This document shows, piece after piece, positions 6,001 to 48,284 of a DNA stretch of 64,000 nucleotides (the first letter of the stretch is position 1; each line of letters opens with the position of its first letter). The stretch lies in contig CBDEUS010000001.1 in assembly GCA_965243395.1 (NCBI GenBank), forward strand, positions 1 to 64,000, written 5' to 3'. A model generated the notes under the pieces. The model was not told the origin of the DNA. It saw only the letters and a program-made list of their open reading frames with translations, and did no database searches. This DNA is from Gammaproteobacteria bacterium. Its GTDB lineage: Bacteria; Pseudomonadota; Gammaproteobacteria; UBA4575. The position numbers were made by a program, and so were the translations under genes.

Positions 6001-9000
6001 GGCGGGTTACACCTATGTGAGTGATACACCAAGTGTTGGAACGTATAACAGTGGCACCGGCGTGTGGACGGTGGGCGCGTTAGCGAATGCGGCGAGTGAG
6101 ACTTTAGTGATCACCGCGACGGTGAACGCGAGTGGACCGTATGACAACATCGCGCAAGTCAGTGCCAGTGACCAAGCCGATCCGGACAGTACGCCGAACA
6201 ACAACGTTCCTGCAGAAGATGATCAAGACAATGCACTGACCACACCGGTGGCGAGTGCGGACTTAAGTTTAACGAAGGTGGTGGACAACGCGACGCCGAG
6301 TGTGGGTGCGAACGTGAACTTCACGGTCACCGTGACCAACAACGGTCCCAGTGGTGCGACCAATGTGGCGGTGTTGGATCAGTTACCGGCGGGTTACACC
6401 TATGTGAGTGATACACCAAGTGTTGGAACGTATAACAGTGGCACCGGCGTGTGGACGGTGGGCGCGTTAGCGAATGCGGCGAGTGAGACTTTAGTGATCA
6501 CCGCGACGGTGAACGCGAGTGGACCGTATGACAACATCGCGCAAGTCAGTGCCAGTGACCAAGCCGATCCGGACAGTACGCCGAACAACAACGTTCCTGC
6601 AGAAGATGATCAAGACAATGCACTGACCACACCGGTGGCGAGTGCGGACTTAAGTTTAACGAAGGTGGTGGACAACGCGACGCCGAGTGTGGGTGCGAAC
6701 GTGAACTTCACGGTCACCGTGACCAACAACGGTCCCAGTGGTGCGACCAATGTGGCGGTGTTGGATCAGTTACCGGCGGGTTACACCTATGTGAGTGATA
6801 CACCAAGTGTTGGAACGTATAACAGTGGCACCGGCGTGTGGACGGTGGGCGCGTTAGCGAATGCGGCGAGTGAGACTTTAGTGATCACCGCGACGGTGAA
6901 CGCGAGTGGACCGTATGACAACATCGCGCAAGTCAGTGCCAGTGACCAAGCCGATCCGGACAGTACGCCGAACAACAACGTTCCTGCAGAAGATGATCAA
7001 GACAATGCACTGACCACACCGGTGGCGAGTGCGGACTTAAGTTTAACGAAGGTGGTGGACAACGCGACGCCGAGTGTGGGTGCGAACGTGAACTTCACGG
7101 TCACCGTGACCAACAACGGTCCCAGTGGTGCGACCAATGTGGCGGTGTTGGATCAGTTACCGGCGGGTTACACCTATGTGAGTGATACACCAAGTGTTGG
7201 AACGTATAACAGTGGCACCGGCGTGTGGACGGTGGGCGCGTTAGCGAATGCGGCGAGTGAGACTTTAGTGATCACCGCGACGGTGAACGCGAGTGGACCG
7301 TATGACAACATCGCGCAAGTCAGTGCCAGTGACCAAGCCGATCCGGACAGTACGCCGAACAACAACGTTCCTGCAGAAGATGATCAAGACAATGCACTGA
7401 CCACACCGGTGGCGAGTGCGGACTTAAGTTTAACGAAGGTGGTGGACAACGCGACGCCGAGTGTGGGTGCGAACGTGAACTTCACGGTCACCGTGACCAA
7501 CAACGGTCCCAGTGGTGCGACCAATGTGGCGGTGTTGGATCAGTTACCGGCGGGTTACACCTATGTGAGTGATACACCAAGTGTTGGAACGTATAACAGT
7601 GGCACCGGCGTGTGGACGGTGGGCGCGTTAGCGAATGCGGCGAGTGAGACTTTAGTGATCACCGCGACGGTGAACGCGAGTGGACCGTATGACAACATCG
7701 CGCAAGTCAGTGCCAGTGACCAAGCCGATCCGGACAGTACGCCGAACAACAACGTTCCTGCAGAAGATGATCAAGACAATGCACTGACCACACCGGTGGC
7801 GAGTGCGGACTTAAGTTTAACGAAGGTGGTGGACAACGCGACGCCGAGTGTGGGTGCGAACGTGAACTTCACGGTCACCGTGACCAACAACGGTCCCAGT
7901 GGTGCGACCAATGTGGCGGTGTTGGATCAGTTACCGGCGGGTTACACCTATGTGAGTGATACACCAAGTGTTGGAACGTATAACAGTGGCACCGGCGTGT
8001 GGACGGTGGGCGCGTTAGCGAATGCGGCGAGTGAGACTTTAGTGATCACCGCGACGGTGAACGCGAGTGGACCGTATGACAACATCGCGCAAGTCAGTGC
8101 CAGTGACCAAGCCGATCCGGACAGTACGCCGAACAACAACGTTCCTGCAGAAGATGATCAAGACAATGCACTGACCACACCGGTGGCGAGTGCGGACTTA
8201 AGTTTAACGAAGGTGGTGGACAACGCGACGCCGAGTGTGGGTGCGAACGTGAACTTCACGGTCACCGTGACCAACAACGGTCCCAGTGGTGCGACCAATG
8301 TGGCGGTGTTGGATCAGTTACCGGCGGGTTACACCTATGTGAGTGATACACCAAGTGTTGGAACGTATAACAGTGGCACCGGCGTGTGGACGGTGGGCGC
8401 GTTAGCGAATGCGGCGAGTGAGACTTTAGTGATCACCGCGACGGTGAACGCGAGTGGACCGTATGACAACATCGCGCAAGTCAGTGCCAGTGACCAAGCC
8501 GATCCGGACAGTACGCCGAACAACAACGTTCCTGCAGAAGATGATCAAGACAATGCACTGACCACACCGGTGGCGAGTGCGGACTTAAGTTTAACGAAGG
8601 TGGTGGACAACGCGACGCCGAGTGTGGGTGCGAACGTGAACTTCACGGTCACCGTGACCAACAACGGTCCCAGTGGTGCGACCAATGTGGCGGTGTTGGA
8701 TCAGTTACCGGCGGGTTACACCTATGTGAGTGATACACCAAGTGTTGGAACGTATAACAGTGGCACCGGCGTGTGGACGGTGGGCGCGTTAGCGAATGCG
8801 GCGAGTGAGACTTTAGTGATCACCGCGACGGTGAACGCGAGTGGACCGTATGACAACATCGCGCAAGTCAGTGCCAGTGACCAAGCCGATCCGGACAGTA
8901 CGCCGAACAACAACGTTCCTGCAGAAGATGATCAAGACAATGCACTGACCACACCGGTGGCGAGTGCGGACTTAAGTTTAACGAAGGTGGTGGACAACGC

Positions 9001-9348
9001 GACGCCGAGTGTGGGTGCGAACGTGAACTTCACGGTCACCGTGACCAACAACGGTCCCAGTGGTGCGACCAATGTGGCGGTGTTGGATCAGTTACCGGCG
9101 GGTTACACCTATGTGAGTGATACACCAAGTGTTGGAACGTATAACAGTGGCACCGGCGTGTGGACGGTGGGCGCGTTAGCGAATGCGGCGAGTGAGACTT
9201 TAGTGATCACCGCGACGGTGAACGCGAGTGGACCGTATGACAACATCGCGCAAGTCAGTGCCAGTGACCAAGCCGATCCGGACAGTACGCCGAACAACAA
9301 CGTTCCTGCAGAAGATGATCAAGACAATGCACTGACCACACCGGTGGC
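1..9348 (+). repeat. Tandem array of 387-bp (129-codon) repeats: 24 full apparently identical copies plus a partial copy at the window start
   Basis: Period of 387 shown by identical antisense ORFs at 208, 595, 982...9109. Units start at 56+387n and the last ends at 9343, with homology continuing to 9348. Confidence 0.98.
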
Positions 9349-12300
9349 TGGTAGCGCGGTTAGTGTTGTTAAACAGTGCGTTCCGGATACGATAATCGCA
9401 GGCACACCAACACTATTGACTATTACTTTGGGGAATACAGGTAGTGTAGATGCAACTTTAACAGCAGATATGCTAGACAATATGCCGACAGGCATGAACG
9501 CTTTAGCAATTAATCCAGCGACATCTTGTCCTAGTGCGATAGATATTAGTAATCCAAATATAATTCGTTATCCAGTTGGTGCTGTTATACCTGCTGGTGG
9601 TTGTGACATAGCAGTTGATGTTACTTCTGCATCTCAAGGAACCTCAACCAACATAATCCCAATAGGGGCACTGCAAACAAACTTAGGTAACAATTTATTA
9701 GCCACATCAGATGATTTAACGGTTATAGGGGATCCTCTAGGATTTTTCTATTGTGAAGATACAGGTCAAGTGATTCCTGGTGGTAGCGTGAGCTTTACAG
9801 CGGCAGGTGCTGGCATCGCCACGTTATTAGAAGACGGTTCTAGCGGAAGGTATCAGGCGACATTTAATGGTACCGACACATATACAATGAATATAACGGT
9901 TCCACCAGGTACCGCATTAAGTACTGCACGACCTGTTGATCCTGCAAATTATGTTTCACCAGTTGGAGCACCAAATCCAACGCTACTAGGTAGTGGTGCA
10001 ACAGGTGGGTTTTTAACGGACTTTACCGCGGCAACTAACACTCCATGGTTTGATGGATTTGATTTTGTTTCTGGTGATCCAATTATTCTGAATAACAATA
10101 TACCATTAACAAATTGTGCTTCGTTTGCAACACCAGTGCTGTTAACTAAAACAGCAAATCCTGATCAAGTTGTAATTGGTGATGTGGTTCAATACACATT
10201 GAACTTAGAAAATAATTCTATTTCATCTTTCACAAATATAGATGTTGTAGACAATATTCCTGGCGGTTTTAGTTATGTAGAAGATTCTGCATTACTTATT
10301 GCTGCAGGTCCTGATGATGAGCTAAATACTAATGATGATATTGAAACAACCATTTCCGTTACGGGTTCTGACCCCATCACTTTTGAAGATATTGATATTG
10401 ATGTAAATGAATCTGTACAAATTCGTTACTTGTTAAGAGTTTCTTCAGGTGTAGTTGAAGGAGAATATGAAAACACTGCACAAGTGTTAGGAGCTGGTTC
10501 CTCAACAATTAGTAATGTGGCGAGTGCCTCGGTAGTGGTTACACAAGATTCTATTTTGCAGAAGACAACCATAATAGGAAAAGTCTTTAACGACCGTGAT
10601 GAAGATGGTTGGCAAGATAGCGCGCATGCGACGAATGTAACTATTAAAAGTGAACATTTTGGATGGGATGGGCATGACCTCGGTACAGTTTATGGGCGTG
10701 CGAGTGAATTTGATTCTATTGAAGAAAACCAATTGCAAGTGCGTATGCCACTAAATCTTGAAGGGGATAATAGTTTTGTTATTGAAAGTTCGGAAGGCAC
10801 GATTATTACTGTAGATAATGATGGCAATGTTAATGAGGAATATAAGGGTTCTAAACATAAAGGCTTAACTGCTCAAGACCTGACTATAAGCACAGCACGT
10901 GAAAATGATGAACTTGTTATAACGATAAGTAACCACGGAATTCAAGAAGCAGGTATTCCAGGTGTGCGATTGGCAACTGTTGAAGGATTGTTGGTAGAAA
11001 CCGATCAATATGGTCGTTATCACCTAGCTGATATTGACGGTGGTCGCTGGGAACGCGGACGTAACTTTATTATAAAAGTAGATCCTGCAACTTTGCCTGA
11101 AGGTGCAGTCTTCACTACAGAAAATCCGCGCGTTTTACGTATTACACAAGCGTTGATGAGCAAGTTTAATTTTGGTGTGAAGTTGCCTGCACAAGAAGTA
11201 GCTTTAACTGAAAGAGCGTATGGTGCGGCCAAACGTGTTAAGCGTGAAGTAGAAGTGGTTGAAACACGTGAAATTAAAGATGTAGTCGACCCAATTTACT
11301 TTAATTCTGGTAAAGCTAATATTTCTCAACAAGCATTGAACGCTTTGCAACAAGAAATTGAACGACTGCAAGACAAAGAAAAAGTAATTATACGTGTGGT
11401 GGGTCATGCAGATAACCAACAGCTTTCAGCGAGTACTAAAGCTAAGTTTGAGGATAATCATGGTTTAGCACGTGCACGTGCAACGCAAGTAGCCGAAATT
11501 TTACAGCGCGAATTACAACTTAGTGATGAAATGATCACGATAGTTGAACATGGTGCGCAAAAACCTATTGCTCCGAATGATACTGCTGAAGGGCGTGCGA
11601 AGAACCGTCGTGCTGAAATTGATGTGGTATATGACGAGCGTTATACCAAAACAGTTGTGGAAATCGATTATACACCTCCGCCAGAGCCAATAATTAAGCG
11701 AGAAGCACAAATTCCTAATGGTGGAGCTATTTGGGCAGTAGAAGATCCGGCTACGATCGATCCACGTTTAAACGTTATTGCTCAAGGCGCAATTGTGCGT
11801 AAAAACAGAAAAGTTAAAGATCCGATTAACTTTACTTTATATAGTAACTACATAGCGTTCATCGATCGTTGGGAATTAGCGATTTATGCGCATAGTGATC
11901 GTGACTTGATTAAACCGATTGAAGTGATAACCGGTAATAAGTTTACGTTTACTGACACAATTGAATGGCAGGCACAAAATGTAGACGAAAAATATTTTGA
12001 AGAGGGTGAAAGCTTAACTTATGTGTTAAGGGTTTTTGATGAGCAAGGACGTATGGATGAAACGGCACCACGTCCACTCGCAGTTGCTGATGAAAGAATT
12101 ATTAAAGTGCAACAACGCGACTTAGAGCAAGATCAGGAAGATGTTGCGCTTGCCAGTTATGGAGAATCAAATTTATTACGTCAAACTATTCCTCTTGCAG
12201 GATCACGAGTACGTGTTAATGGAGTGGATTTAGATACAGATTACACTATCACTGTAAATGGTGAGCGTGTGATTATTGATGAAAATGGTAAGTTTGTGCT

Positions 12301-15112
12301 AGAGCAACATTTACCTATTGGCAAGCATCAAATGTTGGTTAAGGTAACCGATAACAGAAATATCGATTTTGAGCGCAATATAGATGTAGACGTAACTGGA
12401 AAATATATGTTCATGGTTGGTTTAGCAAACTTGACTGTGGGTGAGAATAGTTTATCTGGAAGTGTAGAGCCACTCGGTGATGATGATCATTTTGATGAAG
12501 ATGTATGGGTAGATGGAAGAGTTGCTTTCTACTTAAAAGGTAAAATTAAAGGTAAGTATTTAGTTACTGCACAACTAGATACAACTGAAGATGAATTACA
12601 CAACTTGGGTGATCGCTTAGAAGAAGAGGACCCATCCGCAATCTTCCGTCGTCTCGATCCTGACCAGTTCTATGCAGTGTATGGTGATGACTCAACTACG
12701 ATTGATGATACCGACAGCCAAGGAGCATTCTATTTACGCGTGGATTGGGATAAAAGCATGGCATTGTGGGGTAATTACAATACTGATCTCACGGGCACAG
12801 AGTTTGCGCAATACAACCGCAGTTTATATGGCGCCAAATTAGAACATCGCAATGTTGATGTTACTAAGTTTGGTGAGCATAAGCATGAAGTACATGTATT
12901 TGGAAGCGAAGCACAAACTGCGGCAGCACATAACGAGTTTATTTCTACAGGTGGTTCGCTTTACTACTTGCGTGATCGTGACATAGTGCAAGGCTCGGAT
13001 AAAGTCTGGGTCGAAGTACGTACACGTGACAGTGAACAAATTGTCGAGACTATCACGCTTGAACACGGTAGGGACTATGACATTGATTATATTCAAGGTC
13101 GCATCATTCTCACCCGTCCGTTAACACAATTTGATTTTGGTTCAGGCCCTACAATTATTAAAGATACACCTTTGGACGGTAATGATGTGTTCTTACTCGT
13201 AGATTATGAGTACCTTCCAGATTCGTTCAGTGCAGATGATGTTACTTCTGGTGCGCGCGGTAAAGCCTGGTTGAATGACTATATTGCCTTGGGTGGAACT
13301 TATGTTAACGAAGATCGTGATGGTGTTGATTATGAGCTGAAAGGCACTGATGTCACCTTGCAGGCAGGTAAAGGAACTTATTTGCGCCTTGAATTTGCTG
13401 AATCTGATGCAAAACAAGCCGACAATAATTTTATTTCTGCGAATGGCGGACTTAGTTTCTCAAAACAGAATTCATCAGACGATGAACCAGATGGTGAAGC
13501 AAAAGGTATCGAAGCACGTATCAATTTTGCAGAATTAAGTGATCATGAGGGTTATGTATTAGGTTGGTGGAAAGATCGTGACGCAGGATTCTCATCTGCA
13601 GCACGTTTGGATGACGGGATTGAAACAATAGATACAGGTATCGAAGCACAATGGCAAGCTACTGAGCGATTAGATCTTACAACACGTGCAACAAAACTGG
13701 ATAAGAAAACTCAAAGTGAGTTTAGTGCTGTCAGCGTGCAAGGAAATTACGATGTAAATGACAAGCTTAATGTTGGACTAGAGTTGCGACACGAAAACGA
13801 AGAGGATGATGTATTAAATGAAGAAGGTGATGCGACCTTAGCTGGTGCAGAAATTCGTTATGATTTGACGGATCATACTGAAGTATATACAAGCGGACAG
13901 TTTGTAATCGAGGATAGCGGTGATTATGAAAGTAATGCGCTAGGCACAGTGGGTATACAACAACAAGTAAGTGAGCGGTTGGCACTTAAAGGCGAGCTTG
14001 CCACAGGTGATCGTGGAGATGCTGTGATACTAGGCATGGAATACGATGTCACGCCAAACATGAATATTAGTCTTGATGCAGGGTTTGGTAGTGGTGCGAC
14101 CAGTCAAATTGGTACTAATTACACGACTGCTAGTGGACTAGATTTATACGGTAGTTATGCGACTGATCCTGATCGTACGGATAGTGGTGAATCTATATTT
14201 ACTTTTGGAACACGCAAACGTTATGGAAATGGTCTTCATTTATATAGCGAGAACCAGTTTGGTGAAGGAGAAAATGTACAAAGTGTTGCGCGCACATATG
14301 GGTTGGATTTTGACTTAACCGAGCAATGGCGTTTATCTGCATCTGTACAAAAGAATGATATTGATGATGATTTAGGTGATATTGATCGTCGTGCTGCAAC
14401 ATTGGGCGCAAATTATTATGGAGACGATCTTAAGCTTGGTTCAGTACTTGAGTATCGTGAAGATTCCAATGCTCAAACTAACGAAGATGCTACACAATGG
14501 GTAACCACAAACACAATTGAATGGCAGCAAAGTGAAAGTTTACGTTGGTTAGGTAAAGCAGATCTTTCAACTACACATAGTGATGAAAACAAAGGTGACG
14601 AAGCTAGATATGTCGAACTTGATTTAGGTTTTGCTTATCGTCCCGCTTTCAATGATCGATTAAACATTCTTGGGAAATATACATTTATTTATGATCTGGC
14701 AAGCAGTGGGCAGGATACTTCACTGGCCGACCAACGCAGTCATGTATTTGCATTGGAAAGTATTTACGATCTTACACAAAAATGGGAAGTAGGCGCCAAG
14801 ATTGCCTATAAGACTGGTGACACACGTGTCACAAGGGGATCAGGACCATGGTTTGAAACCGGTGCACATTTGGCAGTTGCGCGTGCGCGCTATCACATGC
14901 TTAAGAAATGGGATGCATTATTTGAATATCGTTGGTTAGAAACCGAAGAACAAGATGATAATAAAGATGGCGCATTAGTAGGCGTGTATCGACATGTCGG
15001 TAAACACATGAAAGTAGGTACTGGCTATAACTTTACTGACTTCAGTGATGATTTAACCGATAACGATTACGACTCTCACGGCTGGTTCTTTGACATTACG
15101 GGTAAGTATTAA
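2..15112 (+). CDS. Giant surface adhesin-like protein (5'-truncated): >=24 DUF11/Ig-like repeats, further Ig-like domains, OmpA-like domain, C-terminal outer-membrane beta-barrel
   Basis: Frame is open from position 2 (CCG AAC AAC...), so GTG at 56 is not the real start. 129-aa repeat [46 protein letters not shown] is DUF11-like. OmpA motif IYFNSGKA...VVGHAD...GLARARA...[15 protein letters not shown] lies at ~11290-11625. C-terminal part has amphipathic beta-strands and ends FFDITGKY. Confidence 0.9.
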   Translation, partial: [5036 protein letters not shown]

Positions 15113-28622: not shown

Positions 28623-28808
28623 CAGGAAGAAATAAAAAATGCAGGTTGGAAAAATTGAATTCAAAGTTTCATTATGTCCGCTAACGACCAATAGCGGACA
28701 TTCAACAAATTATCTTTAACGCTGAAAAAAGCCCATATGTCACTTATAAGGCTGTATAAATTTTCAACTCATACTATTCTTACAACAAATTTCTAGTTGG
28801 GGTGACAA

Positions 28809-29840
28809 ATGCACATCAGTAAAGTTGATTTAATGAAGGCTGCTGAAAAAGGTTTGTTGAGAAGCGAGCAAGTTGAACCCTTGTACGAATTTCTTGGCTC
28901 CATCGATAGTAAAAGCCCAAAATTTGATTTCACCCACGTCCTTTATTACCTAGGTGGTTTAATAGCTATTGGTGCCTTAACTCTTTTCATGAATCTAGGT
29001 TGGGAAGAGTTTGGTGGATGGGGAATATTTTTTATATCTTTGCTATATGCAGGTATTGGATTTAAGTTTACAAATTATTTCCGTGACAAAGATCTGCATA
29101 TACCTGCAGGAATATGTGCTGCATTTATAGTTGCTTTGACACCACTTGCTATATATGGATTTCAGCAGGGTATGGGATGGTGGCCTGAAAATACTCCATA
29201 TAGAGAATATCATCGTTACATTAAGTTTTTATGGATCTACATGGAGCTTGGTGCACTTGCCGTCGGGGCAATAATTGTTTGGAAGTATCGTTATCCATTT
29301 TTACTCATGCCTATTGCTGCAACTCTTTGGTATATGTCCATGGATATTGCAGAGATTATTACTAGCGACATCGTACATTTTGAAGAACGGGCTAAAATTA
29401 CAATGGGATTTGGGCTTGCAATGACATTATTTGCATTGCTCGTAGATATTCGGTCCAGAAAATCATTAGATTATGCATTTTGGCTTTATTTATTTGGAGT
29501 AATGGCATTTTGGGGAGGGTTAACCTCTCAACATTCGGATAGTGAGCTCGCTAAGTTTTTTTATTTCTGTATCAACTTGGTTCTAATAGGACTTGGTGTA
29601 ATTTTAGTTAGAAAAGTTTTTGTAGTATTTGGCGCATTGGGATGCGCATTTTATCTTGGACATTTAGCAAATGAAGTGTTTAAAGATAGTTGGTTATTTC
29701 CCATTGCACTGACTGTTATAGGAATTACGGTTATTTATTTGGGTGTGCTATGGCAAAAAAATGAAAAGAGACTTACAGATAATCTTAGGGGTTACTTACC
29801 AGCTGCTATCCAAGAGCTTCTAGAAGGAAAACGCATTTAA
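28809..29840 (+). CDS. Multi-pass membrane protein (DUF2157-like), cassette gene
   Basis: About 10 hydrophobic segments; N-terminal 'AAEKGLLRSEQVEPL...YYLGGLIAIGA' pattern. Confidence 0.75.
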   Translation: MHISKVDLMKAAEKGLLRSEQVEPLYEFLGSIDSKSPKFDFTHVLYYLGGLIAIGALTLFMNLGWEEFGGWGIFFISLLYAGIGFKFTNYFRDKDLHIPAGICAAFIVALTPLAIYGFQQGMGWWPENTPYREYHRYIKFLWIYMELGALAVGAIIVWKYRYPFLLMPIAATLWYMSMDIAEIITSDIVHFEERAKITMGFGLAMTLFALLVDIRSRKSLDYAFWLYLFGVMAFWGGLTSQHSDSELAKFFYFCINLVLIGLGVILVRKVFVVFGALGCAFYLGHLANEVFKDSWLFPIALTVIGITVIYLGVLWQKNEKRLTDNLRGYLPAAIQELLEGKRI

Positions 29841-29918
29841 CAATATGTTTTAAATGACTGCTTACGACCCAAAGCGGACATTTCCACAATCATAGATTTC
29901 ATTCTTTAAAATCTCATC

Positions 29919-30416
29919 ATGGCTGTTTTTATACACCTATTTGACGAACGAAATGCAAGCTCTATTCGCAAGAATGGAATCAAAATTTCAAAAAACTCGA
30001 ACAAAGAAATTAAAGGTGTATTTGCATATCCACAAACAGAAAATTTTGTTGTAAATCATCAGTGGATGCGGGAATTACGACGGCGTGCAGGACAAAATAT
30101 TTTGGCTGCTCGATTTAGGATTTCCGATAATACTGAAGTATTGGTAGGAAAATATAATGAAGAATCAATAGTTACTTCGGCTTCTAATGCAATTGGAATT
30201 GTCCGACAACATATTGATCCTATGGGATTAGAAGTAATAGTTACAAGGCCAATTAAGCCGCGAGAAATTATATCAATTTACAAACCACCTAAAGTAAGTG
30301 GATGGCGATATTATCCAAATGCTAAAGGCGAAAAACCTTGTGGTTGTCCTTATTGTCAGCGCGGTGAGCCATATAGTAAAAAACTGAGAATCAAATATGA
30401 GAAAGATTTTGAATGA
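29919..30416 (+). CDS. Hypothetical protein with C-terminal CxCxxC motif, cassette gene
   Basis: 165-aa ORF containing PCGCPYC; its TGA stop lies inside the 28-bp site at 30413. Confidence 0.8.
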   Translation: MAVFIHLFDERNASSIRKNGIKISKNSNKEIKGVFAYPQTENFVVNHQWMRELRRRAGQNILAARFRISDNTEVLVGKYNEESIVTSASNAIGIVRQHIDPMGLEVIVTRPIKPREIISIYKPPKVSGWRYYPNAKGEKPCGCPYCQRGEPYSKKLRIKYEKDFE

Positions 30417-30454
30417 CCGCTATTGGCCGAAAGCGGGCATTTATAAAGCTCGTA

Positions 30455-39662: not shown

Positions 39663-40658
39663 ATGAAAAAATTTTCTGCTTTTCGAATCCATTCAAACAG
39701 TGAAGGTACACAAGCAGGAATTGAGCAACTCAGTATTGATGATCTTTGCGAAGGTGATGTTGTTATCAAGGTAAAGTATTCAAGCGTAAATTATAAAGAT
39801 GCACTTGCGGGTTCTGGTAGAGCGCAAATTCTTCGACGTTCACCATTAGTGGGAGGTATAGATCTAGCTGGTGAAGTTGTTGAATCTACAAGTGGTGAAT
39901 TTGTTCCGGGTGATCAGGTCTTAGTAAATGGTAGCGGTTTAAGTGAAACACACGATGGGGGCTATGCAGAATTTGCTCGCGTTCCCACAGATTGGGTTGT
40001 GCCTTTACCAAAGGGATTAAGTTTAAGCCAGACTATGATTATTGGTACGGCGGGTTTTACAGCCGCATTATGTGTGCACTTGCTAGAACAGAATAATCAA
40101 AAAGTAGAAGATGGCCCGATTGTTGTTACAGGAGCAAGTGGTGGCGTTGGTAGTTTTGCGATCAATATATTACATAAGCTAGGCTTTGAAACCATCGCAG
40201 TGTCAGGCAAAAAAAATTCGTTTGACTACTTATATGAATTAGGGGCTACTAAAGTAGTAGGTCGTGAAAAAATCAAAATAGGAGATGGTGTATTAGAAAA
40301 AACACGTTGGGCTGGCGCTATTGATAACGTCGGTGGAGAAACATTAAGTGCATTGGTGCGTGCGACCAAGCCATGGGGAAATGTGGTCAGTGTTGGCATT
40401 GCGGGTGGAGTAAAATTTGAGCTTTCAACCATGCCATTTATTATTCGAGGCGTGAACTTATTAGGTGTAAGTTCATCTAATTGTCCACAAACACTTAGAA
40501 AAGTAATTTGGAATCGTCTTGGCGATGATTTGCACCCTGATCAAATAGCTAAGATACATTCTGAAACAGTTAAGTTAGAAGATTTACCGCAGATATTCGA
40601 AAAATTACTTAATAATGAAATTCAAGGCAGAACGCTTGTGGAGGTAAGTAATGATTAG
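39663..40658 (+). CDS. YhdH/AcuI family MDR oxidoreductase (acryloyl-CoA reductase-like)
   Basis: YSSVNYKDALA, GTAGFTAAL, VTGASGGVGS, PFIIRGVNLLGV motifs. Confidence 0.9.
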   Translation: MKKFSAFRIHSNSEGTQAGIEQLSIDDLCEGDVVIKVKYSSVNYKDALAGSGRAQILRRSPLVGGIDLAGEVVESTSGEFVPGDQVLVNGSGLSETHDGGYAEFARVPTDWVVPLPKGLSLSQTMIIGTAGFTAALCVHLLEQNNQKVEDGPIVVTGASGGVGSFAINILHKLGFETIAVSGKKNSFDYLYELGATKVVGREKIKIGDGVLEKTRWAGAIDNVGGETLSALVRATKPWGNVVSVGIAGGVKFELSTMPFIIRGVNLLGVSSSNCPQTLRKVIWNRLGDDLHPDQIAKIHSETVKLEDLPQIFEKLLNNEIQGRTLVEVSND

Positions 40659-41205
40659 AAGGTTTTTTATGAAAAATACTTATACAGTTTTAATTTTTAC
40701 TTTTGCGCTTCTCGCGAGTGCGATGGTTTATGCGGCAAAAGTGAACCCTCCTGCGCAAATGCCTGAGTTTACCCAAATGGATCAAGCTGCATGGATCAAT
40801 TCAAAACCTTTGGCAGTAAGTGATCTGCGTGGCAAGGTAGTTTTAATTGACGTATGGACTTATGGTTGTTGGAATTGCTACAACTCATTTCCCTGGTTAA
40901 GAAGTGTTGAAGAAAAATTTGCAGATCAAGATTTCACAGTGATCGGTATTCATACACCAGAGTTTGAGCATGAGAAAAAACGTGAAAATATTGTTAAAAA
41001 AGTAGAAGAATTTATGCTGCATCACCCTGTGATGATTGACAACGATTTTGCCTACTGGCGTGCCTTGCGAAATAAATATTGGCCTGCATACTACATAGTT
41101 GATAAGCAAGGCAACATTCGTAAAGGGTTTATTGGCGAAACTCACCAAGGAGATCGCAGAGCAAAAAAGATTGAAAACTTAATTGCTAAATTGCTGAAAG
41201 AATAA
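40651..41205 (+). CDS. Exported redoxin (DipZ/TlpA-like thioredoxin); start may be 40669
   Basis: WTYGCWNC, GIHTPEF, YWPAYY motifs; signal peptide. Confidence 0.9.
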   Translation: MIRRFFMKNTYTVLIFTFALLASAMVYAAKVNPPAQMPEFTQMDQAAWINSKPLAVSDLRGKVVLIDVWTYGCWNCYNSFPWLRSVEEKFADQDFTVIGIHTPEFEHEKKRENIVKKVEEFMLHHPVMIDNDFAYWRALRNKYWPAYYIVDKQGNIRKGFIGETHQGDRRAKKIENLIAKLLKE

Positions 41206-41440
41206 GATTTCCATCAGGCGTGATGCATCCGATTCAAGGTAAGTGAGCTAATATCAATAACAGCTTAGGAATTTCAATTCAGAGCTTCAAAATAACTGCT
41301 TATAGCCCAAAGCAGATATTAAATAATTACTAAACGTAATCGCCGACTAATAAAATAGTCTAATCTTCGTTCTACATACGTGCATTTAATGTAATGAATT
41401 GGAGTTTAGTTTACTAGACTCAATGTTTACAATTAGACAC

Positions 41441-42718
41441 ATGTCAAATAAACATCATGTTGTTGTTATTGGAGCTGGGTTTGGCGGAATACAAACTGTC
41501 CATCATCTCAAGCACAAAAATGTCCGCATCACACTTATTGATCAGCATAACTATCATCTTTTCCAGCCCTTACTATACCAAGTTGCAACCGCATTATTGG
41601 CACCATCAGAGATCGCCTGGCCAATACGTAATTTGGTACGTAAGAGAAAGGATATTACTACTTTATTAGCAGTAGTAGCGGATGTAGATAAAGATAACAA
41701 AAAAGTTATTCTAGAAAACGGCGAATCAATTACATACGACACTCTTGTAATAGCAACAGGAGCACGTCACGCTTATTTTGGACATGACGAATGGTCAAAA
41801 TATGCCCCGGGCTTAAAAGTTTTAGAGGAAGCTACATCTATAAGACACAAAATTTTGATCGCATTTGAACGAGCTGAATTTGAAACAGATAAAATGAAAC
41901 AGGATGCGCTTTTAACTTTTGTAATAGTTGGTGGTGGCCCAACAGGTGTAGAACTTGCTGGCACAATTGCCGAGCTTGCGCACCATACGCTATCTAACGA
42001 ATTTCGCCATTTTGATTCTAAAACCACTCGTGTAGTGCTTGTAGAAGCTTCTTCCCGGATTTTGTCTTCATTTTCGGAAAGTCTGTCGAACTATGCAAAG
42101 AAAGCTCTAGAGAATCTCGGGGTAGAAGTTCAACTTGGGCAGCCTGTATCAACCTGTGATGAGGATGGCGTGACTATAGGTTCTGAAAGGCTAAACTCTA
42201 AAACAATTCTTTGGGCAGCAGGGGTTCAAGCATCACCCGCGGCAAATTGGCTTAATGTGCAAGCTGATCATGCAAATCGTGTCATCGTAGAGCCAGATTT
42301 AACGATCCCGAACAATTCAGAAATATTTGTTATTGGAGACACAGCATCAATTAAGGATAAAAATGGCCATCAAATTCCTGGCATTGCACCTGCCGCTAAA
42401 CAACAAGGGCACTATGTAGCCAAACAAATCAAAGCACGTCTTCAAGGTAAAAAATTAACAAACCCATTTCAATATAAAAGCTTTGGGCAGATGGCAACGA
42501 TTGGTAAACGTGCAGCAGTTTTTGAAATCGGTAGACTGAAATTTCATGGCTGGCCTGCTTGGTGGTTATGGGGAATAACACATATTTACTTTTTAATCGG
42601 GGTGCGTAATAGGATGTCTGTTGCATTAAGCTGGTTATGGATTTACTTCAAAGGTGATAGAGGTGCGCGATTGATTACAAACTTTGATACAACAACAACT
42701 GAGAAATTTGAAGAATAG
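41441..42718 (+). CDS. ndh: Type II NADH dehydrogenase-like FAD oxidoreductase, cassette gene
   Basis: VVIGAGFGG, HLFQPLLYQVAT, VGGGPTGVELAG, VIGD, APAAKQQG motifs; ATG at 41441 preferred over TTG at 41399. Confidence 0.9.
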   Translation: MSNKHHVVVIGAGFGGIQTVHHLKHKNVRITLIDQHNYHLFQPLLYQVATALLAPSEIAWPIRNLVRKRKDITTLLAVVADVDKDNKKVILENGESITYDTLVIATGARHAYFGHDEWSKYAPGLKVLEEATSIRHKILIAFERAEFETDKMKQDALLTFVIVGGGPTGVELAGTIAELAHHTLSNEFRHFDSKTTRVVLVEASSRILSSFSESLSNYAKKALENLGVEVQLGQPVSTCDEDGVTIGSERLNSKTILWAAGVQASPAANWLNVQADHANRVIVEPDLTIPNNSEIFVIGDTASIKDKNGHQIPGIAPAAKQQGHYVAKQIKARLQGKKLTNPFQYKSFGQMATIGKRAAVFEIGRLKFHGWPAWWLWGITHIYFLIGVRNRMSVALSWLWIYFKGDRGARLITNFDTTTTEKFEE

Positions 42719-42799
42719 CAGTAACGTGTTGTTGGAACTATTTAATACGAAATGCTTTAAGATGTCTGCTCACGACCCAAAGCGGACATTTTGGTCATC

Positions 42800-43150
42800 A
42801 TGAAATTAATCGTAAATTGCATACTGCATATTAGTTTTATGATTGTATTTGGTTGTTCACAAGAACCTATAATAAATAATTCAAAATTTGCTGAAAGCTT
42901 AATAGAAGAACATTTTTCTATAGGTACGCACGTAAATGAGATAAATAAATTTTGTGACAAAAATGGATATGCAATATATGAAGCTACTAAATGTGAAAAT
43001 AATCAAGAAAGTTGTTCCCATGGAGCACTTGTAACTGTGTCGACACCAAATAATAGCTGGTGGTATGGAAATGGGCTTATTCAAATATATTTAACATTTG
43101 ATGATAATAAAAAATTAAATCATATTAAGCACGAAATATATTATGACTAA
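42800..43150 (+). CDS. Hypothetical lipoprotein, cassette gene
   Basis: MKLIV...IVFGC lipobox-like signal; ATG 10 bp after a 28-bp site; TAA lies within the next site. Confidence 0.7.
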   Translation: MKLIVNCILHISFMIVFGCSQEPIINNSKFAESLIEEHFSIGTHVNEINKFCDKNGYAIYEATKCENNQESCSHGALVTVSTPNNSWWYGNGLIQIYLTFDDNKKLNHIKHEIYYD

Positions 43151-43173
43151 CGACCCAAATCGGACTTAGCTTT

Positions 43174-43470
43174 ATGACGAATCAGCTATCAAACGAAGAA
43201 GAAAAGGAGCTTTCATCCCTTTATCTTCAAGCAATTATTATTGCTGACAAATTTGCTAATGTAGATTCAAATGAGTCGGAAGCGATTATTGGAATGAATA
43301 ATATTCTAACCAGTGTAAAACCTATAGTGGAAGCGTCTTATCAGAAGAAAAATTTAAAAGGCATGAGGATGATTATAAGTGACTTCAAAGAGATGTTTTC
43401 TGGGTGCTCAGATGAAGATCGGCAAGCAACAAACAAAATATTTAAACAAAATAATTTAGCTGAGTGGTAA
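43174..43470 (+). CDS. Hypothetical protein, cassette gene
   Basis: 98-aa ORF filling the interval between sites 43143 and 43480. Confidence 0.7.
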   Translation: MTNQLSNEEEKELSSLYLQAIIIADKFANVDSNESEAIIGMNNILTSVKPIVEASYQKKNLKGMRMIISDFKEMFSGCSDEDRQATNKIFKQNNLAEW

Positions 43471-43526
43471 TTCGCAAGTATGACCGCTAATGACAGAAAG
43501 TAGAATTTAGTAAAAAAGGGATAATT

Positions 43527-43955
43527 ATGAAACGTTTAATATTCGCTGTATTATTATTTAATGTTGTTTCAATTACTTTAGCTGCACCTCCTAAACCCGC
43601 TGAAACTAAATATCTAAAAACAGAAGTTGGTGGATTCGCAATAGAGAAAGGAAAAGCACTTTATTCTCTACAATATAAAATTAAAAAGCCCTTTGATAAA
43701 AAAATTTCGGCACAGATTCAGTACGAAAATCCTGATCCCAATGGAGGAAGTTTGATTGATGAATTTATAATTAATCCAGGGCAAGTATCAATTTCTGTCG
43801 AATCAGTAGTGTTAAGTTGTATAAAAAACAATAAAAAATATAAAGTTGTACTAAAACTATTCGACGACGGTAAGCAAATTACCAAACATAAAGATAAGGT
43901 ACAGTTTGCTTTACCAGATGAGATAATTCAGCAGTTAAAAATTACATTATGCTAA
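43527..43955 (+). CDS. Secreted hypothetical protein, cassette gene
   Basis: MKRLIFAVLLFNVVSITLA signal peptide; RBS-like AAGGG upstream. Confidence 0.8.
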   Translation: MKRLIFAVLLFNVVSITLAAPPKPAETKYLKTEVGGFAIEKGKALYSLQYKIKKPFDKKISAQIQYENPDPNGGSLIDEFIINPGQVSISVESVVLSCIKNNKKYKVVLKLFDDGKQITKHKDKVQFALPDEIIQQLKITLC

Positions 43956-44019
43956 ATGCGTAAATATCAGCTTTCGAACAAAAGCGGACATTTAAAATTA
44001 ATGTTCTAATATCATCAAA

Positions 44020-44508
44020 ATGCGTTATTTTCTCTTAGTTCTGACTATATTTTCCAACCTATGTCAAAGTAATCAAGAAGAAGTCTACGTTCAATATAAC
44101 GAATATTTTAACCATGTTAATAGTTCAACAAAAACTGAACCCATTAGTATTTATTTTACAAAAAAAGAAATTTTAAAAAGCAAACAAGCCATCAAAACAA
44201 TGAGAGAGCATGGTTTTAGCGATGACTACATAAAGGATAGTATGTGGAAATATCTCGCAAGAGGCGCACGATTCAAAGAAATATCAGATCATGCAGAGGA
44301 TAATTATTTAGATGATAGTAAATGTTTGGTAATACGAGGTTTATACCATAATAATAAATGGGTAAGTGCAATTCACAAATACGATTACGAAGATGGTTCA
44401 TTTAAGATTGATAGTATTTTTTTAGATTATGATGATGGTGGTGATGAACTATTTATTCACGCTAATCTAGATTTATGTGATTTATTACATAGTGAAACTG
44501 CTACATAA
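44020..44508 (+). CDS. Secreted hypothetical protein, cassette gene
   Basis: Signal-like N-terminus; TAA immediately adjacent to the site at 44509. Confidence 0.75.
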   Translation: MRYFLLVLTIFSNLCQSNQEEVYVQYNEYFNHVNSSTKTEPISIYFTKKEILKSKQAIKTMREHGFSDDYIKDSMWKYLARGARFKEISDHAEDNYLDDSKCLVIRGLYHNNKWVSAIHKYDYEDGSFKIDSIFLDYDDGGDELFIHANLDLCDLLHSETAT

Positions 44509-44546
44509 ATGACCGCTATTGGCCGAAAGCGGATATAAAAATTTGT

Positions 44547-45014
44547 ATGAAAAGACAATCACCATTAGTTTGTTGGATACTTTCAGTAATTACCAGCGGC
44601 ATTTATTCATTATATTGGCTTTATAATCGCAGTGATGTAATTAATGAAATGTCGGGTAATACTAATTTTCAAGGAAAGAAAATGGTTAAGAAAATATTGT
44701 TTTCATTTGTAATTGTGTCTGTATTAATGTGTTTAGCGCTATATTTTGATCCTAATCAAGTCAGTAATAAAGAAGCAGATGATGATTTATTTAGCATATT
44801 TTTATGGCTAACATTTTTCGCCGCTATGTTTTATACATGGTCGATTATTCAAGCATTTTACAAAGCTGGATATGCTATCCAAACATTAGAAAAGAAACAG
44901 GACATCGAAAACCAATGCTCACCTTATTTATCATGGGTATTATTATTTTTTTTGTACTTTAATATTCCTTATTTGCAATCTCATTTAAATTGCTTGGGTG
45001 GTCCACAGGAATGA
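44547..45014 (+). CDS. DUF4234-like membrane protein, cassette gene
   Basis: KRQSPLVCWILSVITSGIYSLYWLY...YLQSHLN pattern; TGA lies inside site 45011. Confidence 0.78.
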   Translation: MKRQSPLVCWILSVITSGIYSLYWLYNRSDVINEMSGNTNFQGKKMVKKILFSFVIVSVLMCLALYFDPNQVSNKEADDDLFSIFLWLTFFAAMFYTWSIIQAFYKAGYAIQTLEKKQDIENQCSPYLSWVLLFFLYFNIPYLQSHLNCLGGPQE

Positions 45015-45071
45015 CCGCTATTGGCCGGAAGCAGACATATTTTACTTATAATGGTTTAAATTAGTTTTGAA

Positions 45072-45536
45072 ATGAGTACATATATACATCATCTAACTGC
45101 GAATGATATGACAATCATGAGAGCTATGCTCATAACATTTGGTGAAGTATTCAATGACATGGATACCTATACTGAAAAACAGCCTAGTTCAAACTACTTG
45201 GAAAAATTACTCAATAAGGATTCATTTATCGCATTGGCAGCTTTAAAGAATAATAATGTCGTTGGCGCGATGGTAGCTTATGAGCTTGTAAAATTTGAGC
45301 AAGAACGCAGTGAATTCTACATTTATGATCTAGCAGTAGATAAATCTCATCGGCGTGAGGGTATTGCAACTGGCTTGATAGAAGAGCTAAAAAATATTGC
45401 TGCAAAACGAGGAGCTTACGTAATTTTTGTTCAGGCTGACAAAGGTATTGAGGATGAACCAGCAATTGCACTCTATAATAAGCTTGGAAAAACTTGTGAG
45501 GATGTATTCCACTTTGATATACAAGTTAATGATTAG
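45072..45536 (+). CDS. aac(3)-I: AAC(3)-I family aminoglycoside N-acetyltransferase (GNAT), cassette gene
   Basis: FGEVFND..TY...QP...YL..LL....[26 protein letters not shown]...[32 protein letters not shown]...EDV.HFDI: the motif series of AAC(3)-I (aacC1-type) enzymes. Confidence 0.9.
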
Positions 45537-45596
45537 AATGTCCGGTATCGATCCAAAGCGGACTAATTATAGAAAACTGACAATCCTATAACATTT

Positions 45597-46097
45597 ATGA
45601 GAATAATATTTTTTTTAATACTAATCATTTTAATATGTTCGTGGTTTTATTATGGGCATTGGATCTTTAACAATAAAAAACTATCTTGGAAAATTATTTG
45701 GGTATTTGTAACAATTCTACCGTTTATTAGTTTTTATTATTTAACTAACCCAAGTGTTAACTATTACAAAAATCAATTTACACTTATATCAGGGTTTGAG
45801 TTTCCTTCAAATGGTATATTTATAGACTATTCTTCATCGTTTCCAGATTTACAAGGCGATTATAGCGTTTGTGGTTTGTTCAAAGCTCCAACTGATTTCA
45901 TAAAAATACTAAACTCTACAATTCCTACAATACAAAATGGTCAATTCAAGCCACGAATGTTTTGCAAATTGGATGAGAAATCAAAATATTACTACACAAA
46001 TGTTTTAGATCTTGAAAATGAGGAACTAGGAGTTACAGGAATACTTGGTATCAGCACCGAAACAAATGTTGTTCATTTTCAATTTTTTAGAAATTAA
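45597..46097 (+). CDS. Hypothetical membrane protein, cassette gene
   Basis: Two N-terminal TM segments; flanked by sites 45538 and 46101. Confidence 0.7.
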   Translation: MRIIFFLILIILICSWFYYGHWIFNNKKLSWKIIWVFVTILPFISFYYLTNPSVNYYKNQFTLISGFEFPSNGIFIDYSSSFPDLQGDYSVCGLFKAPTDFIKILNSTIPTIQNGQFKPRMFCKLDEKSKYYYTNVLDLENEELGVTGILGISTETNVVHFQFFRN

Positions 46098-46166
46098 ATA
46101 AAATCCGCTATTGGTTGAAAAATATGCAAAAATGACAATTAGAACTTATATAAAAATATTTTAATC

Positions 46167-46607
46167 ATGAAAGATATAAAAAAAGTTTTTCGTAATCTTG
46201 AAAGAAAATTGAACAAATCAAGTTGGTTTGATAATGGTTGGGAGATTTACAACCGTGGTGTTTATCTGCAACTCTACAAGGATAGCTGGCACAATCATAA
46301 TCAGGGTGGAATTCATTTTGAAACTTTTATTGAAGCGAGAGAAGTTAAACAAAAGGCATTCCCAATCTGTATGCATGCGGAGGAAGATTGCCCCTCACAA
46401 CAGACTTTCATTCAAGAGTTTATGGCATTGGAAGGTGATCGAATAAAGGGTTGGAAAGGTTATCAAATTGGCGAAGGCTACAGCATCTGCAAAAGAACAC
46501 TTCCTCTTAATTTTAAGAATCTGGAGCAACGGTTATTAGAAGAGTTCAGCAGACTTCGACAACTGGAAAAAAGCGTGGAAAAGGCACTGAGTCTAGTTCA
46601 AATTTAG
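46167..46607 (+). CDS. Hypothetical protein, cassette gene
   Basis: 146-aa ORF containing LQLYKDSWHN...GIHFETFI. Confidence 0.78.
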   Translation: MKDIKKVFRNLERKLNKSSWFDNGWEIYNRGVYLQLYKDSWHNHNQGGIHFETFIEAREVKQKAFPICMHAEEDCPSQQTFIQEFMALEGDRIKGWKGYQIGEGYSICKRTLPLNFKNLEQRLLEEFSRLRQLEKSVEKALSLVQI

Positions 46608-46676
46608 GCTGGCTTACACGGTGCAAACATTAATGGCTGAAAGCAGTCATCTAATTAATGTAATAAGGTATTAAAA

Positions 46677-47054: not shown

Positions 47055-48284
47055 TCAAGCGAAGAACCAATAGCCTAGTGTAATTGCGGCGATGATGCCT
47101 GCCAGGTCCGCAAACAATCCACAGCCAATTGCATGACGCACACGATTAATGCCGACACTCCCAAAGTAAACGGCTAAAACATAAAAAGTTGTTTCTGTAC
47201 TGCCTTGCACAATAGCAGCTACATTAGCGGCAAAAGAATCAACACCGTAGTTGTTCATAGTTTCTAATAACATTGCGCGTGCTCCGCTGCCTGAGAAGGG
47301 GCGCATTAAAGCAGTGGGCAAGGCGGCGATGAAGTCTGGATTTAAACCAAGCGTTATTACAACTTTTTCAATACCTTTCAGCACCATATCCAATATCATG
47401 CTGGCACGTAGTACGCCGATAGCTACAAGCATGGCAACTAGATAAGGAATAATTTTGAGAGCGACATCAAAACCCTGTTTGGCACCATCAATAAATGCGT
47501 CATAAACATTCACTTTGCGTAAAAAACCCATAACAAGAAATGCAATGATGATTAAAAGTAACAATAAATTACCAAGTAAGCTGGATCGCTCTGCAAGTGA
47601 AGAGGAACTTTCACTGAGTAAAAATGCTAGGAGTAAACCGATTAGTGCTCCAAAACCCAAAAGATAAAATAATACAGTTTTATTAAATAGATTTAGGCGC
47701 TGAATGAATGCGACGAGTAGTAAGCCAGCAAGTGTTGAGCAACAAGTGGCAAGAAGAATGGGAATGAATACAGCGGTTGGGTCTACAGAACCTTGCTGTG
47801 CGCGAAATAAAAAGATTGTTACGGGTAGTAAAGTTACTGACGATGTATTGAGTACTAAAAATAAAATCTGGGCGTTGCTGGCAATTTCTTTTTCAGGATT
47901 CAGTTCCTGCAAATCTTGCATCGCTTTAAGGCCGAGCGGAGTTGCAGCATTGTCCAGTCCCAGCATATTTGCAGCCATGTTCATTGTGACTGATCCTATT
48001 GCGGGATGATCGCTTGGTACTTCCGGCATGAGTTTTTTAAACAGAGGGCGGAATGCTTTCGTAAGTAACTCAACAAATCCAGCGCGTTCTGCAATAGTGA
48101 AAAACCCCAGCCAAAGACACAATACTCCAACTAAACCTAGAGCAATTTCGACACTTAAGGAAGCCATATCGAAAGTCGCCTGCACGACCTGTGCAAAGAT
48201 GCCATTGTTATCACGAACAATAAATTGATAAATACAGCTTAGAAATGCTGCTAGGAAAAATCCGAGCCAAATGTAGTTAAGCAT
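47055..48284 (-). CDS. Fused SpmA/SpmB (nucleoside recognition 'gate' domain) membrane protein
   Basis: ANMLGLDNAATPLGLKAM, LVLNTSSV, RPFSGSGA, GSTETTFYVLAVYFGSV motifs. Confidence 0.92.
   Translation of the reverse strand: MLNYIWLGFFLAAFLSCIYQFIVRDNNGIFAQVVQATFDMASLSVEIALGLVGVLCLWLGFFTIAERAGFVELLTKAFRPLFKKLMPEVPSDHPAIGSVTMNMAANMLGLDNAATPLGLKAMQDLQELNPEKEIASNAQILFLVLNTSSVTLLPVTIFLFRAQQGSVDPTAVFIPILLATCCSTLAGLLLVAFIQRLNLFNKTVLFYLLGFGALIGLLLAFLLSESSSSLAERSSLLGNLLLLLIIIAFLVMGFLRKVNVYDAFIDGAKQGFDVALKIIPYLVAMLVAIGVLRASMILDMVLKGIEKVVITLGLNPDFIAALPTALMRPFSGSGARAMLLETMNNYGVDSFAANVAAIVQGSTETTFYVLAVYFGSVGINRVRHAIGCGLFADLAGIIAAITLGYWFFA

Follow-up and report, generated by a model that had tools for sequence, protein, structure and literature searches.

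The gene under study lies at positions 45072..45536 on the + strand of the 64,000-nucleotide stretch that was analysed (the window). It encodes a 154-aa AAC(3)-I family aminoglycoside N-acetyltransferase, with an ATG start codon and a TAG stop codon. On both sides it is bordered by a 28-bp imperfect palindrome of the pattern ATGWCYGCT-N10-AGCGGAYAT. The upstream site (45011-45038, + strand; one mismatch, centre type B) finishes 33 bases ahead of the ATG, and its left arm contains the TGA stop codon of the preceding ORF (44547-45014). The downstream site (45538-45565, + strand; three mismatches, centre type A) begins 2 bases past the TAG. An earlier note on this DNA had claimed flanking sites at 45011 and 45538, and both are present.

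The gene and its two sites are part of an array of about ten co-oriented modules (array 2, 41292..46650, + strand). Its order is NDH-2, ORFs of 119, 98, 142, 162 and 155 aa, the AAC gene, and ORFs of 166 and 146 aa, with sites at 41292, 42762, 43140, 43480, 43964, 44509, 45011, 45538, 46101 and 46623; the copies at 43140, 43480, 46101 and 46623 are more degenerate. Neither of the two ORFs behind the AAC gene, the first of 166 aa (45597..46097, + strand) and the second of 146 aa (46167..46607, + strand), had a Pfam match. The left flank of the array is an AhpC/thioredoxin-like gene with a Pfam match (40651..41205, + strand), and the right flank is a gene for a nucleoside-recognition (Gate) membrane protein (47055..48284, - strand). 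GC content was 31.8% in array 2 versus 40-42% in the flanking genes. A smaller array (array 1, 28674..30440, + strand), flanked by amtB on one side and a GAF-domain gene on the other, has sites at 28674, 29854 and 30413 and consists of a 343-aa and a 165-aa ORF, each forming one module.

The start of the window is occupied by a repetitive sequence. In positions 1-9201, inside ORF 2..15112, a 387-bp unit (129 aa) is repeated 24 times in tandem without a single difference; these repeats have 56% GC in a genome of 38-40% GC. The ORF is open at its 5' end and at least 5036 aa long, with more large ORFs behind it. Its product resembles a giant surface protein built of repeats; the perfect identity of the repeats may reflect assembly of a collapsed repeat.

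AAC(3)-I family membership of the product

The NCBIfam equivalog model NF033083 (AAC_3_I) matched the 154-aa protein at 221.3 bits (E 5.3e-66), which exceeds the cut-off of 200 by only 21 bits; the match spans residues 5-152 and profile positions 1-145 of 145. Pfam GNAT model PF00583 matched at 56.2 bits (cut-off 20.7). The top match among solved structures was PDB 5hmn, "AAC3-I" (E 3.4e-57, residues 1-153), followed by 4yfj, 6bvc, 9mgs and 1bo4 (Serratia AAC(3)-Ia), with E values from 3.4e-57 to 7.4e-39 over the set. Identity to plasmid references was 57.3% for aac(3)-Ia, 55.7% for Ib, 56.4% for Ic and 56.9% for Ih. When the protein was aligned with Ia, Ib, Ic, Ih and five environmental members (10 sequences), 57 columns were invariant. 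The sole length change was a two-residue insertion (G-IE-D) common to the AAC protein and the environmental members.

A quick maximum-likelihood tree was built from 40 rows: 34 of the 120 matches listed, the four references and, as outgroup, two GNATs of related genomes. The AAC protein fell inside a 38-row AAC(3)-I clade together with Ia, Ib, Ic and Ih (SH-aLRT 100 versus the two outgroup GNATs), and thus does not group outside the AAC(3)-I family. Ia, Ib and Ic were nested deeper, at 98; 24 of the 37 inner branches of this tree were poorly supported. The identification as an AAC(3)-I homolog, proposed in the earlier note, was borne out by the NF033083 score, the structure matches, the invariant columns and the tree.

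AAC(3)-I enzymes acetylate the 3-amino group of gentamicin-type aminoglycosides, with acetyl-CoA as donor. By homology, the product of 45072-45536 is predicted to be a GNAT-fold AAC(3)-I enzyme that would carry out this gentamicin-type acetylation. Relatives are abundant in the environment: 5576 proteins were found at E 0.001 or better, and 567 stretches with AAC(3)-I relatives were confirmed among species-representative genomes. Outside the genus, the nearest relatives with context are environmental chromosomal AAC(3)-I genes of 60-72% identity from many phyla; homologues of 74-86% identity come from short contigs and were left out of the flank counts below. A preprint (bioRxiv 10.1101/2021.09.10.459797) describes soil GNAT "meta-AACs" whose resistance activity is on par with that of clinical enzymes, and cites Xu et al. 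2017 as the primary source on them. The third-position GC of the AAC gene (0.28) is similar to that of host genes, indicating that the gene is no recent import from a high-GC donor. Taken by itself, the gene adds one more, unremarkable member to a family that is large and well known.

28-bp sites divide arrays of unrelated small genes

The source genome (G000) is 2.58 Mb in two contigs and 100% complete, and the window opens contig 1. Within the window we found 9 distinct sites at ≤3 mismatches, versus 0.21 expected (100 shuffles, largest 2). Across the genome, at ≤2 mismatches, the pattern gave 66 forward and 63 reverse matches, versus 1 and 0 for a reversed control pattern. These matches represent ~100 sites in ~25 clusters. 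In every cluster fetched, the sites divide small co-oriented ORFs lying between housekeeping genes; cluster positions include those after amtB, ychF, folE and rpoD, and between pgeF and clpB. A tRNA gene (74.6 bits; L083 4101-4174, G000 C1:232100-232173) borders the array of seven modules that follows ychF.

Sites and genes share an orientation. The stop codon of a co-oriented ORF lies within -11..+60 bases at 77 of 120 sites, versus 20 for the opposite orientation, and in 16 cases the stop codon is inside the site, as the TGA of the left arm. The median length of the 77 site-linked ORFs was 155 aa, and a single pair among them was similar at E 1e-5 or better; tandem paralogue expansion was rejected on this count. 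Most array ORFs have no Pfam family. The others are small enzymes and DUFs (glyoxalase, nitroreductase, OsmC, SnoaL, Rap1a immunity). In this arrangement the AAC gene forms a module on its own, within a chromosomal row of small genes that share an orientation but not an origin. Every module terminates at, or a few bases from, a 28-bp imperfect palindrome. No promoter-like signal was found ahead of the AAC gene, which is therefore probably expressed by read-through from upstream. Among the sequencing runs containing the stretch, no RNA run was listed.

Two centre types occurred almost equally among 95 sites (47 A, 48 B). Of 32 close pairs of sites, spaced 59-83 bases apart, 28 have the B site first and the A site second. 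In its full form the site is a composite of ~101 bp, made up of a B site, a linker of 45 or 55 bp and an A site. Examples are found at G000 C1:233163-235440 (L083), at 11679-14297 of L110 in G022, and at the loci of G019. The linker is kept across genera, with GGTTGGAATCAA and ATACAAG as conserved words. In structure prediction the composite forms a single long hairpin, and the bottom strand was the more stable in 5 of 6 composites folded. That the two arms and the two centres are kept across lineages as distant as those described below speaks for a protein partner. Promoter and terminator scans remained at background level, and no Rfam family matched the sites. A role as DNA uptake sequence was rejected: of 56 arm 9-mers, 42 fell within sites, and the 14 elsewhere compare with ~12 expected by chance, indicating that the arms do not occur alone.

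Distribution of the sites

The family to which the source genome belongs consists of uncultured gammaproteobacteria. Thirteen of 14 congeners carry 30-200 sites per genome. Sites were also found in five other genera of the family and in one distant family, and 28 of 250 other Pseudomonadota genomes sampled carry the site at ≤1 mismatch.

The site was further present in 101 IMG/VR stretches with GC 0.39-0.65. In viral contigs its neighbours include small tyrosine recombinases and large DUF2924-associated serine recombinases. A separate observation concerns a lambdoid-type prophage group (23 IMG/VR loci: L144, L155, L157, L188, L190, L214 and others) that holds one perfect-armed palindrome. In these enterobacterial-type prophages its position is fixed, 83 bp past a PerC-like gene and ahead of a cargo gene (GAF-EAL in L144). 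The prophages encode a CI-like repressor, YdaS/YdaT, and DnaT-like and PerC-like proteins; no match was found in phage or E. coli collections. Many viral contigs start or stop within 100 bases of a site (L185, L205, L174, L202, L203, L193 and others). Such ends fit assembly breaks at a repeat, and short-read assemblies therefore probably under-represent the arrays.

Array content differs between genomes, and breaks fall at sites

An orthologue of the AAC gene (90% identity) was found in 2 of 56 family genomes, counting G000; the second is G012. Two other family genomes hold only a GNAT of 37-38% identity. In G012 the gene sits downstream of an argG-mlaA-folE block that is syntenic with G000 C1:277-282 kb. 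In G000 this locus is also a site-bearing array, other than the AhpC-to-Gate array that the AAC gene occupies there. At the folE locus, synteny between G000 and G012 stops, in each genome, at a degenerate site. The two contexts share the AAC gene and the 146-aa ORF (81% identity) and no other gene, and a functional link between the AAC gene and this ORF at 46167-46607 is possible. The 166-aa ORF, site-bounded in G000, is missing between them in G012, which retains half-sites at the corresponding junctions.

The AhpC-to-Gate gap measures 6.4, 12.5, 2.5, 1.6 and 2.6 kb in five congeneric genomes, with no shared array ORF. Its borders are stable: the AhpC flank is kept in all four congeneric genomes compared, and the Gate flank is 84-97% identical in all five. 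A homocysteine S-methyltransferase-like gene (313 aa, 79% identity) provides a further case of a gene that changed hot spot. It lies at C1:873601-874542 in G000 and in the AhpC-to-Gate hot spot in G011 (L098 1792-2730) and G002 (L097 2876-3811), so that it occupies different site-bearing loci in G000 versus G002 and G011.

Sequencing runs were also searched. One metagenome contig (run X7, record 27) is 97.6% identical to the window over 45017-45310 and differs upstream of 45017, which places the break inside the 45011 site. Another X7 contig covers the end of the AAC gene, the 45538 site and the next ORF in window order. Neither an excised circle nor an empty-site junction was seen among the joints in sequencing runs, and because the sides of these joints are shorter than 30 letters, repeats can explain them. 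In run X5 a 40-letter linker joins 44540 to 45537; its source may be any composite site, and it was not counted as an empty junction.

The earlier proposal that the AAC gene is carried as a cassette gains comparative support from these data: the gene occurs in two of the 56 genomes, in two different site-bearing arrays, and the X7 sequence breaks at a site. The evidence that the AAC module itself moved comes from one other genome (G012) and one low-depth contig. This comparative evidence is thin and points all in one direction. Our best explanation is that the AAC(3)-I gene is a module of a non-integron, site-bounded, cassette-like array, to which we give a probability of roughly 0.65.

Sites compared with REP/BIME elements

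The sites may instead be REP/BIME-like extragenic elements, acting as structural or post-transcriptional 3'-end signals, that have accumulated in fast-evolving regions; the AAC gene would then be an ordinary accessory gene of a hypervariable island, not moved by the sites. We regard this as the most serious competitor, with perhaps a one-in-four standing. In BIME-type REP pairs, two variants stand at a fixed distance with a conserved linker between them. The present sites resemble them in being short (~30-bp) imperfect palindromes directly past stop codons and in having two variants that are paired in this way. They are also spread over ~25 places in the genome, which could fit dispersed REP elements, though these places are mainly accessory arrays. 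Within single sites no compensatory changes were found; arm pair 6/23 showed a C-A mismatch in 25 and T-A in 6. The searches described below gave no dedicated recombinase, which likewise agrees with a REP-like nature.

Several results count against REP-like elements. PF01797 had no match in G000, which accordingly has no RAYT. Nor do RAYT genes follow the number of sites: 8 of 56 family genomes encode one, among them a single one of the 14 congeners, and they also turn up in the genera g5 and g7, where sites are few. Instead of lying between core genes, the sites gather in arrays of accessory ORFs that are unrelated to one another, and species-level synteny breaks at them. Site orientation tracks ORF orientation, as counted above. 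In intrinsic-terminator scoring the sites did not stand out, with 1 found versus 3.3 expected.

Search for an enzyme acting on the sites

G000 encodes five tyrosine recombinases: XerD (in xerD-dsbC), XerC (in dapF-DUF484-xerC-hslVU) and three P4-like integrases. Searches of G000 for serine recombinases and IS110 transposases found none. The P4-like integrases could not be tied to the sites; they are sporadic, occurring in only 3/56 and 2/56 family genomes. Of the three small tyrosine recombinases near viral sites, two are related to each other; one of these viral recombinases, used as query against this family, retrieved Xer-size genes only.

The housekeeping XerC/XerD pair may use the sites, as has been proposed for the pdif of Acinetobacter plasmid modules; this is a special case of the cassette-like explanation that names the enzyme, and we hold it improbable. 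Acinetobacter pdif are 28-bp sites that bound modules of one or a few genes, which may carry resistance genes and have no recombinase gene of their own; they alternate in orientation from one site to the next. The present sites have the same length and can be parsed as two inverted arms round a short centre, their modules likewise carry no recombinase, and XerC and XerD are the only tyrosine recombinases common to all site-rich genomes. The two enzymes are, however, equally present in the site-free genera g3, g4, g5 and g10. The canonical dif occurs once in G000, at C1:959290-959317, at the cumulative GC-skew maximum (~950 kb of contig 1), that is, the replication terminus, and the 28-bp sites share neither arm with it. 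They also differ from pdif in being chromosomal, not plasmid-borne, and in lacking the strict alternation of orientation. The closeness of the xer genes to sites (2.6-3.5 kb) was rejected as a clue, as both lie in their usual operons.

Relation to integrons

AAC(3)-I genes move as integron cassettes, and the arrays were compared with integrons in several ways. A crude attC detector of our own found 4 attC in the plasmid controls L106 and L107 (blaVIM, aac(3)-Ia/Ib) and missed at least one in L108. With this detector, no RYYYAAC/GTTRRRY attC element was found in window positions 26000-48000. Over 80 loci it gave 20 matches versus 16 in shuffled sequence, so its background is high. G000 has no integron integrase (IntI): the best TIGR02249 match (E 1.6e-23) is under the cut-off and corresponds to the XerC and XerD genes.

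Among the 56 family genomes, IntI scored above the cut-off of 265 bits in five (387-490 bits): G014 (L138), G015 (L137), G041 (L139), G052 (L142) and G056 (L141). Each IntI gene has a divergent array of small ORFs beside it. None of these five arrays contains a 28-bp site; three of them gave canonical attC-like elements. A sixth IntI gene, in G044, is interrupted by three stop codons. IntI presence does not track the sites among the family genomes: G015 has IntI and ~136 sites, the two apart, and G014 has IntI and a single site. The absence of detected attC elements from window positions 26000-48000 and of IntI from G000, together with true integrons that have no 28-bp sites, confirms the term "non-attC system" used in the earlier note.

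That note had also suggested exchange of cargo with integrons. Flanks of homologues were searched for both kinds of site. Right after the gene, an attC-like element was detected in none of the 80 closest genome loci (crude detector); among 80 metagenome loci with homologues of ≤71% identity, one had such an element after the gene and one before it. The only 28-bp site among the 80 closest genome loci was at the 90% orthologue of G012 (0/79 for the others). Three weak pattern matches in the 80 metagenome loci looked chance-like on inspection, leaving 0 credible sites in 159 genome and metagenome loci. With attC after 1 of 160 homologues of 60-72% identity and no credible 28-bp site beside 159, this near absence leaves exchange of the AAC gene with integrons unsupported. 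It is weakened further by the low identity (55-57%) of integron-borne aac(3)-Ia, Ib and Ic, and by the absence of 28-bp sites from the five true integrons of related genomes.

The arrays could in principle be integrase-less integron cassette clusters (CALINs) with very divergent attC, a reading that the similar architecture, cargo types and number of arrays and the hairpin with its more stable bottom strand recommend, but the lack of any RYYYAAC...GTTRRRY element in window positions 26000-48000, the IntI-adjacent arrays that have no 28-bp sites and, in three of five, attC-like elements, and the separation or near lack of sites in G015 and G014 make it highly implausible.

Discussion

We propose that the AAC(3)-I gene of this uncultured gammaproteobacterium is packaged in a cassette-like system that appears to be distinct from integrons and seemingly undescribed. 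A limited literature search, covering the palindrome arms and integron-like cassette systems, found no description of a 28-bp site system of this kind. The arrays behave much as integron cassette arrays do, forming hot spots between housekeeping genes with content wholly different between species, and use neither attC nor an integron integrase. Recombination at the 28-bp sites is the most likely way in which the AAC module came to lie where it is now; site-specific recombination is what we infer from the breaks and from the change of array.

A more specific form of this proposal is tentative, and we would put it at somewhat better than one chance in three. Here the 28-bp palindrome, or the 101-bp B-linker-A composite, would be the recombination site of a second, integron-independent cassette system that seeds many chromosomal hot spots. 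Its enzyme would be encoded away from the arrays, perhaps as a housekeeping or unrecognised recombinase, and AAC(3)-I would be the first resistance-family cargo seen in it.

The AAC gene shares family, length and GNAT fold with the AAC(3)-Ia, Ib and Ic class 1 integron cassettes, which are likewise single-gene units ending at a palindromic site. It differs from them in that the site is a 28-bp palindrome instead of a 108-nt attC, the host replicon is the chromosome of an uncultured gammaproteobacterium, the resistance is putative, and the protein has the G-IE-D insertion. Environmental AAC(3)-I genes, including the soil-metagenome 5hmn, are its nearest relatives, and their own flanks have neither credible 28-bp sites nor attC. 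A role of the system as an environmental reservoir for resistance homologs, as raised in the earlier note, is possible.

Like integron arrays and CALINs, the arrays themselves are rows of small ORFs that share an orientation, lack promoters, are unrelated to one another and each have an imperfect palindrome behind them; many such arrays occur per genome, with no adjacent integrase and with species-specific content. What sets them apart is that an attC consensus, IntI and a single attI platform are all absent; about 25 intergenic spots are seeded, and the true integrons of the same bacterial family are separate from the 28-bp arrays.

The meaning of the finding depends on the nature of the sites. 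If they are only REP-like hairpins, it shrinks to an environmental AAC(3)-I gene of the usual kind, located in a variable island. If they are recombination sites, surveys of mobile resistance genes that centre on integrons would overlook this route, and the arrays would be a new case of a gene-capture platform working without a resident integrase.
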